Virus record (IMG/VR): IMGVR_UViG_2585427758_000017
Location: 1 to 3,518 of that record
Strand: one strand, 5' to 3'
Length of the DNA stretch: 3,518 bases
Source of the DNA: a virus
Taxonomy: Duplodnaviria; Heunggongvirae; Uroviricota; Caudoviricetes
Below are positions 1 to 3,518 of this stretch, in pieces (position 1 is the stretch's first letter; each line of letters begins with the position of its first letter). A program made the translations under genes and the position numbers. Below the pieces are notes generated by a model. That model made no database searches and was not told the DNA's origin. It worked only from the letters and a program-made list of their open reading frames with translations.

Positions 1-408
1 ATGATCACTATTACCAAAGGGCGACTGCTGACAATCAAGCAGTGGCGCGAAACATACGGACCGGGTAGCAACGTTGTACTGCCAGCAGAAGAAGCGGAAG
101 AACTGGCACGAATTGCACTGGTATCGCTGGAAGCAGAGCCGGTGGCAAAGATTATAGCTCATTACCCATTAGGAGTTGACGTAGGCAAACAAAAGTTCGT
201 ACAGGCCATTGGAGAGCTTCCTGACTTTGGCGGATATCTATTTGCCGCCCCTCCAGCGCCGATAGTGCCGGAAGAAGCAACTCCGGAAAACGTAGAAATG
301 CTCTCTGGCTATGTTTCCACGTACAAATTAACCGATAGCGAGCGCGATATTGCTGCCGAAATATGGAACGCCTGCCGCGCCGCTATGCTTCATGGGAAAG
401 GAGAGTGA
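1..408 (+). CDS. Hypothetical prophage accessory protein (135 aa), short paralogue of the 684..1427 gene
   Basis: ORF begins with ATG at base 1 and ends TGA 406..408. N-terminus MITITK matches MTTITK of the 684 gene, and both share an ELARIAL-SLEA-PV motif and a C-terminal module (PAPxVPEEATPENVEMLSGYVSTYKLTDSERDIAAEIWNACRAAML). No upstream sequence is available, so no RBS can be seen. Family not identified. Confidence 0.6.
   Translation: MITITKGRLLTIKQWRETYGPGSNVVLPAEEAEELARIALVSLEAEPVAKIIAHYPLGVDVGKQKFVQAIGELPDFGGYLFAAPPAPIVPEEATPENVEMLSGYVSTYKLTDSERDIAAEIWNACRAAMLHGKGE
247..392 (+). repeat. Copy A of a ~146-bp near-identical direct repeat (4 mismatches; 121-bp perfect core 263..383)
   Basis: Manual alignment at an offset of 671 bp: 247..392 against 918..1063. 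Mismatches are at 252, 262, 384 and 393. It encodes the shared C-terminal module of the two paralogues. Confidence 0.9.
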
Positions 409-409
409 T

Positions 410-673
410 ATGGCAACTTTAACAAAAAAAGAACGGGCATGGTTGAACGAATTACAGGACGTTCTTGATCGCTGCCCATCACCGAAAAAAATTGGTTTTT
501 ACACCATTGGCGATAAAAGCATTTACCTGTATGACCTGCGCCGCATGGATGAAATCATGGAGGCTCTTGATAATCGTTCGTCGATGGATTGGTGTGTTGC
601 TGTTCATGATATGAATGCAGGGTTTGATGAAAAGATTTTGTTCCCCTCATCAGTTGAAAGCACTGCGGGTTAA
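410..673 (+). CDS. Hypothetical small protein (87 aa, MATLTKKERAWLNELQDVLDRC...)
   Basis: ATG at 410 is preceded by an AAAGGAGAG Shine-Dalgarno (397..405) and lies 1 nt after the upstream stop (TGA-T-ATG). The ORF-track start at 350 has no RBS and overlaps the upstream gene, so 410 is preferred. Stop TAA 671..673. No recognisable family. Confidence 0.6.
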   Translation: MATLTKKERAWLNELQDVLDRCPSPKKIGFYTIGDKSIYLYDLRRMDEIMEALDNRSSMDWCVAVHDMNAGFDEKILFPSSVESTAG

Positions 674-677
674 GGAG
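672..677 (+). promoter_or_regulatory. Shine-Dalgarno AAGGAG for the 684..1427 CDS
   Basis: AAGGAG overlapping the upstream TAA stop, 6 nt before ATG 684. Confidence 0.7.
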
Positions 678-683
678 TAACAC

Positions 684-1427
684 ATGACCACTATTACCAA
701 AGAACGTATTGAATTGTTCATTAAAAATCCGCTTGAAAACGGGCTTACCCGTGGTGAACAAATGGAACTGGCACGGATTGCGCTGGCATCGCTGGAAGCA
801 GATCCAGTTAAACGAGTTAACTCAGATCAGATGCGCCGAGTCTGCTTAGAAGCTAATCGCCATTTAGATAAATATGACGCGATGGCGAAAGAGGTAAATA
901 AGTTGCTTGGACGCATCGCCCCGCCAGCGCCGGTAGTGCCGGAAGAAGCAACTCCGGAAAACGTAGAAATGCTCTCTGGCTATGTTTCCACGTACAAATT
1001 AACCGATAGCGAGCGCGATATTGCTGCCGAAATATGGAACGCCTGCCGCGCCGCCATGCTTCAGTCCGGAAACTTTCGGGAAAACAAGAATTCGTCAACC
1101 AATAATTTTCGGGAAATCGCGGAAACGTCAACCAACTATCCGGCAATTCCTAGTGAGGTGTTGTCCGCAATCCTGAAGGTTGCCAGGATTCGTGCCGATT
1201 TCGATGATTTTGACGGTGACAGGCGAGGTATCGGTGATTGTCTGGATGAGGCTGAGCAAGAGCTTATCGTTACCATTAACAAATATGCCAGTCAGTTGGC
1301 AGCAGAACCTATAGCGCCTAATGACGTTCGAGAGCAGACAGCCATTCCACAAGTTCCGGTAACTCCGGATGGTTGGATAAGCTGTAGTGAGCGAATGCCG
1401 GACGACAGGCAGGAGGTGAATCAATGA
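684..1427 (+). CDS. Hypothetical modular prophage protein (247 aa): N-terminal module paralogous to the 1..408 gene, internal tandem repeat linker, C-terminal region ending in a DUF551-like WIS..R.P motif
   Basis: ATG 684 is preceded by an AAGGAG Shine-Dalgarno (672..677) with a 6-nt spacer. It shares the 146-bp near-identical segment with the first gene. The C-terminal residues WISCSERMPDD resemble, from memory, the start of DUF551 found in lambdoid accessory proteins; this is not verified. Confidence 0.7.
   Translation: MTTITKERIELFIKNPLENGLTRGEQMELARIALASLEADPVKRVNSDQMRRVCLEANRHLDKYDAMAKEVNKLLGRIAPPAPVVPEEATPENVEMLSGYVSTYKLTDSERDIAAEIWNACRAAMLQSGNFRENKNSSTNNFREIAETSTNYPAIPSEVLSAILKVARIRADFDDFDGDRRGIGDCLDEAEQELIVTINKYASQLAAEPIAPNDVREQTAIPQVPVTPDGWISCSERMPDDRQEVNQ
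918..1063 (+). repeat. Copy B of the ~146-bp near-identical direct repeat (perfect core 934..1054)
   Basis: Same alignment as copy A. Flanking sequence diverges immediately on both sides. Confidence 0.9.
1071..1136 (+). repeat. In-frame tandem duplication, 2 x 33 bp (25/33 identical), encoding NFRENKNSSTN / NFREIAETSTN
   Basis: 1071..1103 aligns to 1104..1136 with conserved TTTCGGGAAA and CGTCAACCAA cores. It starts 8 bp after the end of the 146-bp repeat, inside the 684..1427 CDS. Confidence 0.8.
1411..1416 (+). promoter_or_regulatory. Shine-Dalgarno AGGAGG for the candidate micropeptide
   Basis: Exact AGGAGG, 7 nt upstream of ATG 1424. It lies inside the 3' end of the upstream CDS. Confidence 0.5.
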
Positions 1428-1507
1428 GCTGGCCTGATGCAATCGTAACTCTGGGGGTGGTATTCGCAGCAGCGTTTGTTGTGTTCTCGATTTGTCGATG
1501 GGGATAA
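1424..1507 (+). CDS. Candidate 27-aa hydrophobic micropeptide (MSWPDAIVTLGVVFAAAFVVFSICRWG), putative single-pass membrane peptide
   Basis: ATG 1424 is preceded by a perfect AGGAGG (1411..1416) with a 7-nt spacer, the strongest SD in the window. The start overlaps the upstream stop as ATGA. It has a 17-residue uninterrupted hydrophobic core followed by CRWG, and its TAA stop (1505..1507) sits 4 nt before the next ATG. It is absent from the ORF track only because of its length. Confidence 0.35.
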   Translation: MSWPDAIVTLGVVFAAAFVVFSICRWG

Positions 1508-1511
1508 CCAC

Positions 1512-1754
1512 ATGTTCGCTTTGATTCAACGCGGTCAGATATACACGGACAGAGCCGGATACCCCGTGGTGATTACTCGCATCACTGAGCACTCAGTGTT
1601 CTTTCGACGGATGGACGGACGATCCGGGCGGGTACGCATTGGTGAGTTAAACTGCCTGTTCGAACATATTGACCACCAGGAGTACCGCAAAATTCTCGCG
1701 GACACTGAGCAGGAAAAGCACCTGAAAAAATTACGAGCCATAAAAAGGAAGTAA
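1512..1754 (+). CDS. Small hypothetical prophage protein (80 aa, MFALIQRGQIYTDRAGYPVVITRITEHSVFFRRMDGRSGRVRIGELN...)
   Basis: The ORF-track entry 1476..1754 starts at a TTG with no RBS. The in-frame ATG at 1512 follows a GGGGA purine tract (1499..1503) and directly follows the micropeptide stop, so it is preferred. Resembles small proteins commonly found just upstream of xis in enterobacterial prophages (possibly DUF4222-type, unverified). Confidence 0.6.
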   Translation: MFALIQRGQIYTDRAGYPVVITRITEHSVFFRRMDGRSGRVRIGELNCLFEHIDHQEYRKILADTEQEKHLKKLRAIKRK

Positions 1755-1757
1755 AGA

Positions 1758-1904
1758 ATGAATAAAGCATTTGAACGATGGGTCCACCAGCGTTACGGCA
1801 ATCGCTATGACCTGACGCGAGATGTTGACGGCTTCTACTGTCGTGAAGTTGTGAAGCGAATGTTTGAAGTGTGTTGCCACTGCCGTGGGCTGAGTGTTGT
1901 GTGA
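1758..1904 (+). CDS. Small Cys-rich hypothetical protein (48 aa, MNKAFERWVHQRYGNRYDLTRDVDGFYCREVVKRMFEVCCHCRGLSVV)
   Basis: ATG 1758 is preceded by an AAGGAAG Shine-Dalgarno (1745..1751) with a 6-nt spacer and lies 3 nt after the upstream stop. Its TGA stop (1902..1904) overlaps the xis SD. It carries a C28-x10-C39-C40-H41-C42 cluster. It is below the ORF-track length threshold. Confidence 0.45.
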   Translation: MNKAFERWVHQRYGNRYDLTRDVDGFYCREVVKRMFEVCCHCRGLSVV

Positions 1905-1912
1905 GGTAATAC

Positions 1913-2149
1913 ATGGGCAATGTGATTCAACTGGCTCCCAATGAATGGGTTTGTGAAAGCGTTCTTATCGCAATTACCGGGCTCAAACCAGGCACAATTC
2001 TTCGGGCCCGGAAAGAATGCTGGATGGTTGGAAGAGAGTATATTCACGTATCACCAGACGGTAATCCAAAGCCTTCCAGTGAATGTATGTATAACAGAAA
2101 AGCAATAGATGCCTGGGTCGCCTCAATGAAAAACAAACAACCCAGGTGA
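1913..2149 (+). CDS. xis: Excisionase / recombination directionality factor (78 aa)
   Basis: Small basic protein immediately upstream of and co-oriented with the integrase. The sequence MGNVIQLAPNEWVCESVLIAITGLKPGTILRARKECWMVGREYIHVSPDGNPKPSS matches, from memory, the excisionase-like family of E. coli Rac/e14-type prophages. GAGGT SD 1903..1907. Confidence 0.8.
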   Translation: MGNVIQLAPNEWVCESVLIAITGLKPGTILRARKECWMVGREYIHVSPDGNPKPSSECMYNRKAIDAWVASMKNKQPR

Positions 2150-2204: not shown

Positions 2205-3518
2205 ATGGATAAAGTCAAATATCCAACAGGCGTCGAAAACCACGGCGGCACATTACGCATCTGGTTTAATTTTAAAGGTAAACGTGTCAGGGAAAATCTT
2301 GGTGTCCCTGACACTGCCAAGAACAGGAAGATCGCCGGGGAACTGCGGACATCAGTATGTTTTGCCATCCGCACAGGAAGCTTTGATTATGCTGCACAGT
2401 TCCCTGACTCCCCCAACCTTCAGGCTTTTGGGGTAAGTAAAAAAGAAATTACGGTGAAGGAACTTGAAGAAAAGTGGCTGGATCTGAAACGAATGGAAAT
2501 CTCTGCAAATGCATTCAATCGCTATGAATCCGTTGCAAGAACGATGGTTCCGAAAATTGGAGGCAGTAGACTGGTGTCATCGGTAACCAAAGAGGAATTG
2601 CTGTATATCAGGAAAGATTTGCTTACCGGGTATCAGAATTCAACGAAAAACAAAGCAGCAGCAAAAGGACGGAGCGTCGTTACTGTAAATTATTACATGA
2701 CGACAATCGCTGGAATGTTTCAGTTTGCTGCAGATCACGGTTACTTAGAAGCAAATCCCTTCCAGGGAATTAAGCCTCTTAAAAGAGCCAGGGCAGAGCC
2801 AGATCCGCTAACTCGTGACGAATTTATTCGCCTGATAGATGCTTGCCGACATCAGCAGACGAAAAACCTGTGGTCATTGGCTGTGTACACAGGAATGCGT
2901 CACGGTGAACTGGTCTCCCTGGCCTGGGAAGATATCGATCTGAAGGCAGGAACAATTACCATCAGGCGCAATTATACGAAACTTGGTGAGTTCACTCTAC
3001 CGAAAACTGAAGCAAGCACAAACAGGGTTGTGCACCTTATCCAGCCCGCTATCAGTGTCCTGAAAAATCAGGCTGAAATGACAAGACTGGGTAAGCAGTA
3101 CAACATCAAGGTGCAACTACGTGAATATGGACGTTCAGTGAACCATGAATGTACTTTCGTGTTTAACCCTCAAGTGGTTAGAAAAAGCGAACAGGTAGGT
3201 TTTGTCTACAAAGTCGATTCTGTAGGTGACTCATGGGAAACAGCCATTAAGCGTGCAGGGATCAGGCATCGAAAGGCATACCAGTCACGACACACTTATG
3301 CGTGCTGGTCATTATCTGCCGGAGCAAACCCAAGCTTCATTGCCAGCCAGATGGGCCATGCAAGTGCCCAGATGGTATTCAATGTATACGGAGCATGGAT
3401 GACTGACAGCAATGCAGAACAGATCGCAATGCTGAATCAGAAGCTGACAGATTATGTCCCAATGATGCCCCATAGTCACCAAAGTGACACCAGAGGCTTA
3501 TTAAAATCAGTAAGTTAA
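2205..3518 (+). CDS. int: Tyrosine recombinase, lambdoid phage integrase with N-terminal arm-binding domain (437 aa)
   Basis: GGAGG SD 2195..2199 with a 5-nt spacer. The N-terminus (HGGTLRIWFNFKGKRVRENLG) is arm-binding-like. Catalytic residues can be placed: Arg I R232 (2898..2900, TGMRHGE), Lys K267 (3003..3005, LPKTEA), Arg II R362 (3288..3290, SRHTYACW), His H385 (MGHAS) and nucleophile Tyr Y395 (3387..3389, NVYGAW). Resembles Rac IntR-type integrases from memory. Confidence 0.95.
   Translation: MDKVKYPTGVENHGGTLRIWFNFKGKRVRENLGVPDTAKNRKIAGELRTSVCFAIRTGSFDYAAQFPDSPNLQAFGVSKKEITVKELEEKWLDLKRMEISANAFNRYESVARTMVPKIGGSRLVSSVTKEELLYIRKDLLTGYQNSTKNKAAAKGRSVVTVNYYMTTIAGMFQFAADHGYLEANPFQGIKPLKRARAEPDPLTRDEFIRLIDACRHQQTKNLWSLAVYTGMRHGELVSLAWEDIDLKAGTITIRRNYTKLGEFTLPKTEASTNRVVHLIQPAISVLKNQAEMTRLGKQYNIKVQLREYGRSVNHECTFVFNPQVVRKSEQVGFVYKVDSVGDSWETAIKRAGIRHRKAYQSRHTYACWSLSAGANPSFIASQMGHASAQMVFNVYGAWMTDSNAEQIAMLNQKLTDYVPMMPHSHQSDTRGLLKSVS

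Follow-up and report, generated by a model that had tools for sequence, protein, structure and literature searches.

The stretch of DNA analysed here (3,518 nt, referred to as the window) ends with the genes for an excisionase and an integrase, and six genes precede them. The question is what these six genes are, and whether they constitute one functional system. The features of the window are as follows.

P1, 1-408, + strand, 135 aa, acidic, N-terminal two-thirds of an EaA/DUF551-type protein
P2, 410-673, + strand, 87 aa, acidic, predicted alpha/beta protein
P3, 684-1427, + strand, 247 aa, paralogue of P1
Direct repeat copy 1, 246-392, no strand, 147 nt, within P1, encodes APPAP..NACRAAML
Direct repeat copy 2, 917-1063, no strand, 147 nt, within P3
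Two tandem 33-nt units, 1071-1135, + strand, in P3, NFRENKNSSTN and NFREIAETSTN, 78% identity
P4, 1424-1507, + strand, hydrophobic micro-protein of 27 aa, MSWPDAIVTLGVVFAAAFVVFSICRWG
P5, 1512-1754, + strand, 80 aa, basic, DUF4222
P6, 1758-1904, + strand, 48 aa, basic, phrog_3871
xis, 1913-2149, + strand, 78 aa, DUF1233-type excisionase
int, 2205-3518, + strand, 437 aa, tyrosine integrase of the phiP27 type

Coding sequences occupy 97.7% of the window, and 81 nt are non-coding. The eight ORFs are all on the + strand, and the gaps between them are, in the order from P1 to int, 1, 10, -4, 4, 3, 8 and 55 nt. Direct reading of the sequence bears out the description in the first-pass annotation of eight same-strand genes that nearly abut or overlap. 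There is one true overlap (ATGA), between the stop of P3 and the start of P4. The junctions quoted there are exact: TGA-T-ATG at 406-412, ATGA at 1424-1427, and TGAGGT at 1902-1907, where the stop codon of P6 lies inside the SD of xis. An SD-like purine run is found 5-8 nt before every internal start: AAGGAG for P2 (398-403, within the final codons of P1), AAGGAG for P3, AGGAGG for P4, GGGGA (weak) for P5, AAGGAAG for P6, GAGGT for xis, and GGAGGT for int. Seven of the eight ORFs match Pfam and/or PHROG families. The exception is P4, which has no match in either and is backed by comparative evidence. Among the ORFs of the minus strand, the only match is a weak one, of a 154-aa ORF (1128-1592) to phrog_23547 (E = 5e-5), and this ORF was taken as an antisense mis-call.

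The last two genes constitute a xis-int module. The xis product matches PF06806 (E = 9.5e-33) and phrog_539 (excisionase DUF1233), and the int product contains Arm-DNA-bind_2 and Phage_integrase (PF12167, E = 1e-23; PF00589, E = 3e-18). The two genes are 94% identical to those of phiP27 at the nucleotide level. In related E. coli chromosomes, a gene labelled yecE (DUF72) adjoins the integrase gene. The gene order in three relatives (L001, L002, and L210) is a cI-type repressor, accessory genes, Ead_Ea22, and P1-P2-P3-[P4]-DUF4222-P6-xis-int. The genes annotated or called from the repressor to int are on one strand in these relatives, except for one 75-aa call on the minus strand in L210. This one-strand order matches the pL layout of lambda. 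Synteny in L001, L002, L210, L003, and L294-L300 shows such a block flanked by the early recombination genes and xis-int, on the strand of the repressor and pL side.

The exo-xis region of lambda and Stx phages (orf60a, orf63, orf61, orf73, ea22, ea8.5, and orf55) occupies the same position, from the recombination genes to xis-int on the pL strand, and its small, non-essential, tightly packed genes are likened to those of the block. Its proximal block is conserved, and the distal set of genes that comes next is variable (PMC8614690). Ead_Ea22 genes are present just upstream of the window counterpart in the relatives of this prophage. DUF1317 (orf60a) is found in distant lambdoids with DUF4222, and DUF1382 (orf63) and TraR-like genes are found in those from E. 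coli. In contrast to the entire exo-xis region, the window spans only the variable distal part. It is likely, with a probability of roughly 0.8, that the block belongs to a lambdoid E. coli prophage, where it forms the variable distal end of the exo-xis ("ea") accessory region, and that it is composed of independently exchangeable cassettes, not of one system. Gene structure, family assignments, mosaic breakpoints, synteny and the conservation of each ORF are direct results of the analysis. By analogy with the exo-xis genes that have been studied, the small products of the block may modulate the physiology of the host or the phage.

None of P1 to P6 has homology to Ea22, Ea8.5 or Orf55 of lambda; P5 and P6 show no similarity to Ea8.5 or Orf55. 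For P1 and P3, affiliation to Ead_Ea22 (PF13935) was rejected: there was no Pfam match at E < 0.1, BLASTP against lambda Ea22 gave E values of 0.72 and 6.6, and the hhalign probability was 0.2%.

According to published work, the pL-transcribed exo-xis region is non-essential and can influence lysogenization, induction and the lysis-lysogeny decision (PMC7093339, PMC8614690, PMC3824215). Its transcription from pL has been described for lambda and Stx phages (PMC7093339). From the layout, it is plausible that a single transcript runs from pL through the block, as was proposed earlier. Expression of the genes would be of the delayed-early kind, starting at pL upon induction or infection, and transcription would read through into xis-int. 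Promoter-like sites (6, with 5.2 expected) and terminator-like sites (4, with 3.5 expected) in the window are at chance level. The window contains no CII-type site (TTGYN6TTGY, as expected for a pI-like promoter), and the Rfam search at E <= 1 gave no match. A consensus scan for the pL promoter in the relative L001 picked out none.

Mosaicism, claimed previously for this region, is supported by internal repeats and by relatives that match the window only piecewise. The direct repeat of 147 nt (246-392 and 917-1063) is 98% identical between its two copies, and shorter repeats are observed between 100-143 and 765-808 and between 1-19 and 684-702. The homology block of P1 stops precisely at the end of the repeat, which is the start of the P2 cassette. 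Breakpoints coincide with the ends of the repeats and with the DUF551 stub in P3. Among the complete E. coli genomes searched, the whole window was not found in one piece, and the best match covered 95% in five pieces. Positions 1-725, which hold P1, P2, and the beginning of P3, are 100% identical to DNA of DicB-type prophages, in which it lies in the rightward, nin-like region. The cassettes are thus not confined to the integrase-proximal location.

In this reading, the cassettes are joined at short conserved linkers, namely the MTTITKER start, ELARIALxSLEAEP, NACRAAML, PDGWIS, and QEVNQ-stop/ATGA. P2 is a self-contained cassette inserted at the NACRAAML linker, and P5 and P6 are a pair moving among different integration modules. 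The block is not a multi-gene system, in agreement with the first-pass annotation, which could identify none; the genes are independently shuffling cassettes and gave no system-level matches. The region is ordinary lambdoid mosaicism, with recurrent gene families mostly of unknown function. As a whole it is a textbook case that changes nothing, and its value lies in three leads, which are P4, the DUF4222 model, and P2.

P1 (pI 4.9) matches no Pfam family, and its PHROG matches (phrog_60, phrog_5117, phrog_660, and phrog_3323) are each annotated as unknown function. A 252-aa protein (P0314) is nearly identical in sequence to P1 up to about residue 131, after which it has a P3-like C-terminus, representing the uninterrupted form. 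P1 is recognizable from its sequence as a modular protein of the EaA/DUF551 type, which the P2 cassette interrupts directly behind the NACRAAML module. In the relative L210, the stop codon of a 171-aa gene overlaps the start of P1 by 4 nt. P3 begins with an N-terminal module, followed by the NACRAAML module that it shares with P1, a tandem repeat of 11 aa, phrog_14306 as the central domain (E = 2e-53), and lastly a DUF551 stub (PDGWISCSERMPDDRQEVNQ). The score of P3 against DUF551 (PF04448) is 23.8 bits with the cut-off of 22, yet the match covers only profile positions 1-16 of 68, and the domain is not complete. Compared with a 287-aa DUF551 protein in L006, the window has an in-frame deletion of 132 nt (44 codons), and the core of the domain is gone. 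P1 and P3 are chimeras of EaA/DUF551-type modules in which the DUF551 core has been lost. They resemble EaA/DUF551 proteins (P22 EaA-type and YfdS of CPS-53) in the N-terminal, NACRAAML, and pre-DUF551 modules, and differ from them in the missing core.

It is possible, but unlikely, that P1 and P3 are decaying, functionless debris that recombination has left of EaA/DUF551 genes, carried along in a permissive region. P1 is shortened relative to the 252-aa protein, P3 lacks 44 codons of its only recognizable domain, and related neighbours are labelled as pseudogenes in RefSeq. However, the reading frames and SDs of both genes are intact, and exact copies recur: the P1 sequence is listed in 338 blocks of the assembly collection and the P3 sequence in 140 contigs. 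The same DUF551 stub is seen after at least five different upstream sequences. Such recurrence is more readily explained by a stable allele than by a single chance lesion.

In contrast to the previous statement that none of the six products could be assigned, P5 has a characterized relative, RgdR, by common membership in DUF4222. Sequence searches of the PDB with P1, P2, P3 and P5 returned nothing meaningful. P5 (pI 10.1) scores 51.3 bits against DUF4222 (PF13973; cut-off 27) and covers profile positions 2-53 of 53, which places it in the family. RgdR (ECs1581) scores 82 bits (E = 2e-23) against the same profile. Type III secretion (LEE) and motility in EHEC are regulated by RgdR, a member of DUF4222 (PMC3378721, PMC10877973), and the tripeptide RGD was reported to be important for its activity (PMC3378721). 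RgdR has phenotypes in motility and Congo-red binding, and regulation of LEE1/T3SS and non-specific binding to DNA count among the functional traits of the RgdR family. P5 does not have RGD; it has R7-G8-Q9 at the corresponding position, and G and Q are near-invariant in the P5 clade. The identity between P5 and RgdR is 41% over 27 aa only. The two proteins share the Pfam domain, small size, strong basicity (pI ~10 in both), and a conserved strand with R-G-x-I-Y-x-D, and the gene of each is carried by a prophage or island. RgdR differs in having an N-terminal extension of 16 residues, which is absent in P5. The RgdR gene precedes the gene for a primase in a P4-like element, which is a PICI according to PMC6092414, whereas the P5 gene is upstream of xis in a lambdoid prophage.

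By analogy with RgdR, P5 may act on transcription. The structural model of P5 shows a Tudor/SH3-like barrel and a basic helix, through which P5 could bind RNA polymerase or DNA. The fold model of DUF4222 suggests a possible mode of action for the virulence regulator RgdR as well. Distantly related DUF4222 genes of Enterobacter and of E. coli are located 0.2-0.9 kb upstream of xis or int, and downstream of Gam/RecT/YqaJ or Rad52/SSB genes and DUF1317 (lambda orf60a). The E. coli loci additionally have DUF1382 (orf63) and a TraR-like zinc-finger gene on the upstream side.

P6 matches phrog_3871 (E = 7.5e-33) and is found in 44 phage records, ~1.6-2.2 kb from the int end where the numbering of the record begins there. 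P6 adjoins P5 in all 81 loci. The identity of P5-P6 is 91-100% in most loci, and only 86%/77% in each of two loci. The adjacent xis and int in P5-P6 loci fall into three identity classes, 100/100, 49/76, and 0/27%. These comparisons indicate that P6 travels with P5, abutting at least three kinds of integration module. The residues F5, G14, Y17, D22, Y27, and R29 of P6 are invariant. P6 was rejected as a zinc finger or zinc ribbon because the cysteines (C28, C39, C40, and C42) all vary among homologues. A PDB match to a TAL effector (E = 7e-20) was also rejected, as it adds up weak similarity to many TALE repeats, with no single stretch over the threshold.

P4 is absent from annotation in the RefSeq records inspected. 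Nevertheless, 199 of 201 homologous P4 starts open a frame of exactly 27 codons, and the ORF is unbroken in 55 of 56 distinct contexts, which were chosen through P5 alone. In codons 7-22, pN/pS is 0.43 for P4, versus 0.93 and 1.39 for the two alternative frames, a pattern of purifying selection. The mean Kyte-Doolittle hydropathy of residues 6-24 is 2.6. P4 is predicted to be a genuine single-pass membrane peptide of 27 aa. It is encoded by at least 504 IMG/VR contigs, and P4-like DNA is present in ~1,100 of 5,426 complete E. coli genomes. Four kinds of gene end are observed upstream of the ORF, and two main kinds of gene downstream. Its translation is probably coupled to whichever gene stands before it. 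No peptide string of P4 was found in the main texts searched or in the supplementary material of a paper on the EHEC translatome. P4 is not a frameshifted remnant of DUF551, as the other two frames stop immediately. It is not fused to DUF551 proteins, either; the DUF551 proteins that share 90% clusters with it do not contain the peptide, and the co-grouping is an artefact of clustering. This conserved, selected gene for a membrane peptide, missing from the inspected annotations, is one of the leads.

Two further readings are unlikely. In the first, P4 would be a widespread functional membrane micro-protein, largely overlooked by reference annotation, which lambdoid phages express by translational coupling behind interchangeable EaA/DUF551-type genes. 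P4 could then act in early development on these soluble partner proteins, or on a process in the host membrane such as division, membrane potential, or exclusion. In the second, DUF4222 proteins including RgdR would be Tudor-domain factors binding RNA polymerase. The RNA polymerase-interacting domains of CarD and UvrD are proposed as analogues of the DUF4222 Tudor domain, and binding to RNA polymerase would account for the promoter-unspecific effects of RgdR.

It is improbable that P4, alone or with the coupled gene, is a membrane-active toxin or kil-like peptide that causes growth arrest or depolarization on induction, like type I toxins. P4 resembles small membrane proteins (Hok/Gef-type toxins and small inner-membrane regulators) in size and in its single hydrophobic helix, and these are also often overlooked by annotation. 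Its ends are conserved and its SD is strong. A Hok/Gef-family gene is present ~153-158 nt downstream of P4 in roughly 60 of 199 loci. However, that hok gene belongs to a module with its own expression, and the window does not contain it. P4 is unrelated in sequence to those proteins, matches no Pfam or PHROG family, and has neither its own promoter nor an antisense RNA detected with Rfam. Unlike type I toxins, it is translationally coupled within an operon. P4 is thus not assigned to Hok/Gef or any other type I toxin family.

The proposal that part of the block has a host-directed defence, exclusion or anti-defence function is quite improbable. The location is typical of "moron"-like genes. 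Many anti-restriction proteins are acidic, and P1, P2, and P3 are all acidic (pI 4.7-4.9). The signature of DUF551 is also found in a phage MazZ, a dATP/dGTP pyrophosphohydrolase that inhibits host restriction enzymes (PMC10834534), but the DUF551 core is missing from P3. PADLOC gave no match for any of the eight proteins at E <= 0.1, NCBIfam gave none for P1 to P6, no enzymatic or known inhibitor domain is present, and the cassettes shuffle independently of each other. Nothing supports the host inhibition, restriction alleviation or exclusion suggested in the first-pass annotation. A point in favour of such a function is P2, for which a confident alpha/beta fold without a solved relative is predicted. 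P2 is widespread in Enterobacterales, and this 87-aa protein is a testable lead.

The window holds eight ORFs, all on the plus strand, and the non-coding remainder is 81 bases.

Genes of the window from the ORF reading (P1 to P6, the proteins encoded upstream of xis and int)
1-408, plus strand, P1
410-673, plus strand, P2
684-1427, plus strand, P3
1424-1507, plus strand, P4
1512-1754, plus strand, P5
1758-1904, plus strand, P6
1913-2149, plus strand, xis
2205-3518, plus strand, int

The junctions described in the first-pass annotation, TGA-T-ATG at 406-412, ATGA at 1424-1427 and TGAGGT at 1902-1907, are all exact in the sequence; the last doubles as the P6 stop and the Shine-Dalgarno sequence (SD) of xis. 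A purine-rich SD lies 5-8 nt before every internal start. Promoter-like and terminator-like sites in the window are no more numerous than in shuffled sequence, and the Rfam search of the window (E <= 1) gave no match. From this layout and the literature, the most economical reading is pL-driven expression that would read through into xis-int. In the related locus L210 (9489-10004), and likewise in L211-L213, the gene for a 171-aa protein lies directly upstream of P1. Its stop shares 4 nt with the P1 start; thus, the coupled gene chain extends past the left edge of the window. The 171-aa protein has no Pfam match on record and, judged by eye, contains a D...E-x-K pattern like that of PD-(D/E)xK nucleases.

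In the close relatives L001 (strain CMZE063), L002 (phage PhiR49_2) and L210, a cI-type repressor gene and the later annotated or called genes share the window strand and lead into xis-int. The sole exception is a minus-strand call of 75 aa in L210. A cro-like gene is oppositely oriented, Ead_Ea22 genes are directly upstream of the window's position, and the order from repressor to int matches the pL layout of lambda. In lambdoid prophages that are more distantly related, from Enterobacter and E. coli, a DUF4222 gene is located downstream of Gam/RecT/YqaJ or Rad52/SSB genes and of DUF1317 (lambda orf60a), at 0.2-0.9 kb upstream of xis or int; the E. coli loci additionally carry DUF1382 (orf63) and a TraR-like gene. 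Judged by this gene order, the accessory block is the variable, distal portion of the exo-xis region, the lambda accessory region between the recombination genes and xis-int. The exo-xis region is transcribed from pL, is non-essential, and affects lysogenization and induction (PMC7093339, PMC8614690, PMC3824215).

Domain matches identify the xis product as a DUF1233 excisionase and the int product as a tyrosine recombinase (Arm-DNA-bind_2/Phage_integrase). Their DNA is 94% identical to that of phage phiP27, and a DUF72 gene (yecE in some records) abuts the integrase gene in complete E. coli genomes. In lambda, xis and int overlap, whereas in the window they are 55 nt apart (2150-2204), and a CII-type TTGYN6TTGY site, candidate for a separate int promoter, is found nowhere in the window. 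Thus, lysogenic int expression may be organised otherwise than in lambda.

Positions 1-725, which span P1 and P2 in full plus the opening 42 nt of P3, are 100% identical to DNA of DicB-type prophages (L211-L213, 10001-10725). There, the cassette is in a rightward, nin-like operon, with replication genes on one side and Hok/Gef, RusA and Q-antiterminator genes on the other. The P1-P2 cassette is therefore not bound to the integrase-proximal site. The identity points to recent exchange of the cassette between different prophages.

Repeat analysis revealed that P1 and P3 are paralogous chimeras with three common elements.

Elements shared by P1 and P3
P1 1-19 and P3 684-702, start module
P1 100-143 and P3 765-808, ELARIALxSLEAEP module, 89% identical
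P1 246-392 and P3 917-1063, 147-nt direct repeat ending in NACRAAML, 98% identical

The 147-nt copies flank the P1 end, the whole of P2 and the P3 start. Homologous recombination between them would remove P2 and join P1 to P3, yielding a protein like P0314. P1 is the front of this longer protein, which elsewhere has 252 aa and a P3-like C-terminus. The P1 stop is five codons past NACRAAML, and these codons (HGKGE) contain the P2 SD. PHROG matches of P1 and P3 (60, 5117, 660 and 3323; also 14306 for the P3 centre) are all of unknown function. Relatives of P1 and P3 are labelled "Ea22" in some records. Membership in Ead_Ea22 was rejected, with no Pfam match, no similarity to lambda Ea22 and an hhalign probability of 0.2% against the Ead_Ea22 alignment.

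The DUF551 match in P3 scores barely over the cut-off, and its alignment is limited to profile positions 1-16 of 68. Set against L006, an O26 prophage whose DUF551 protein has 287 aa, the window is missing 132 nt, a loss of 44 codons that keeps the reading frame, and the remainder is PDGWISCSERMP-DD-RQEVNQ. It is unlikely that these truncated and chimeric genes are recombination debris. In other contigs, the DUF551 stub occurs after at least five different preceding sequences, and is therefore a circulating allele.

Sequence comparison indicates that the 27-codon P4 ORF is real. DNA-level searches found this stretch at ~75% identity, with the ORF intact, in VT2-Sakai/933W-type Stx phages and the O26 prophage. 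Copies of the window ORF (1424-1507) are at 1516-1599 in both L005 (VT2-Sakai) and L006, and at 6802-6885 in L002. The ORF has exactly 27 codons from 199 of 201 homologous starts in IMG/VR and phage loci (60 distinct DNA sequences). Over codons 7-22, the part left free by the search patterns, pN/pS is 0.43, whereas the two alternative frames give 0.93 and 1.39. At homologous loci, the start always forms an ATGA overlap with a TGA stop and is preceded by a GGAGG-type SD. Among 56 distinct contexts, picked solely via the neighbouring DUF4222 gene, 55 have an intact ORF. The sole broken copy (L257, upstream of a DUF4222 gene) has one extra G within a G run, which may reflect either an error in sequencing or a site prone to slippage.

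P4 homologues have conserved ends, MxWP(D/E)A and SICRW(G/R), and a middle that is variable yet hydrophobic. As residues 6-24 have a mean hydropathy of 2.6, P4 fits a predicted single membrane helix; that such a peptide is membrane-toxic is quite improbable. The preceding gene ends are of four kinds: full DUF551, the DUF551 stub, ...LISVEDILR and ...NIEQ(E/K)VN(R/Q). Downstream is either a DUF4222 gene after 4 nt or a mok/hok (Hok/Gef toxin) module after ~155 nt. The latter arrangement is seen in 933W/VT2-Sakai-type Stx phages (1753-1965 in L005) and many IMG/VR contigs. P4 is absent from the annotation of the inspected RefSeq and phage records, 27-aa variants are called "bacteriophage protein" in a few GenBank records, and a literature text search of main texts found no occurrence of its peptide strings.

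P5 matches DUF4222 (51.3 bits), which has 972 detectable members; the named ones are all from Enterobacterales among the matches listed (120 of 972). RgdR (ECs1581), an activator of LEE1/type III secretion, motility repressor and non-specific DNA binder (PMC3378721, PMC10877973), itself matches DUF4222 (E = 2e-23). P5 is distant from RgdR, with 41% identity across 27 aa, and has RGQ in place of RGD. The first-pass annotation assigned no function to any of the six upstream products; this remains valid for P1-P4 and P6, but P5 has a characterised relative in RgdR. By this analogy, it is most likely that P5 modulates transcription like RgdR. P0023, an E. coli DUF4222 protein of 100 aa, contains an exact internal duplication of ~20 residues, with GYPVKIIRSTDHSVFFKRMD present twice.

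P6 is a basic protein of 48 aa (phrog_3871). A zinc finger was ruled out because the cysteines vary among homologues. The phmmer match of P6 (1758-1901) to TAL effectors in PDB (E = 7e-20) had zero qualifying stretches; the E-value is an artefact of a weak match summed across many repeats. The P6 gene is directly upstream of xis in phages of E. coli, Salmonella (Fels-1) and Klebsiella. P6 is more conserved than its neighbours xis and int: identity to the window is 83% for P6, 57% for xis and 65% for int in Fels-1, and 77% for P6 and 26% for int in the O26 prophage. P5 and P6 are adjacent in 81/81 loci holding both and 91-100% identical in most of them, whereas the xis/int beside them fall into three identity classes (100/100, 49/76 and 0/27%). 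Therefore, the P6-xis junction is a module boundary.

PADLOC found no defence-system profile match for the window proteins, and domain searches of the accessory block found no enzymatic domain. Because of these results, and because the cassettes recombine independently at short conserved linkers, the block fits an ordinary mosaic accessory region with no co-evolving system; the earlier statement that no defined multi-gene system could be identified is borne out. An anti-defence or exclusion role for the block, or part of it, is very unlikely. The added value beyond familiar mosaicism is modest and lies in the P4 micro-gene and the predicted DUF4222 and orphan P2 folds. An antisense ORF of 154 aa (1128-1592, minus strand) crosses the junctions between P3, P4 and P5. 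Its match to phrog_23547 is weak (E = 5e-5), and that family probably consists of mis-called antisense ORFs.
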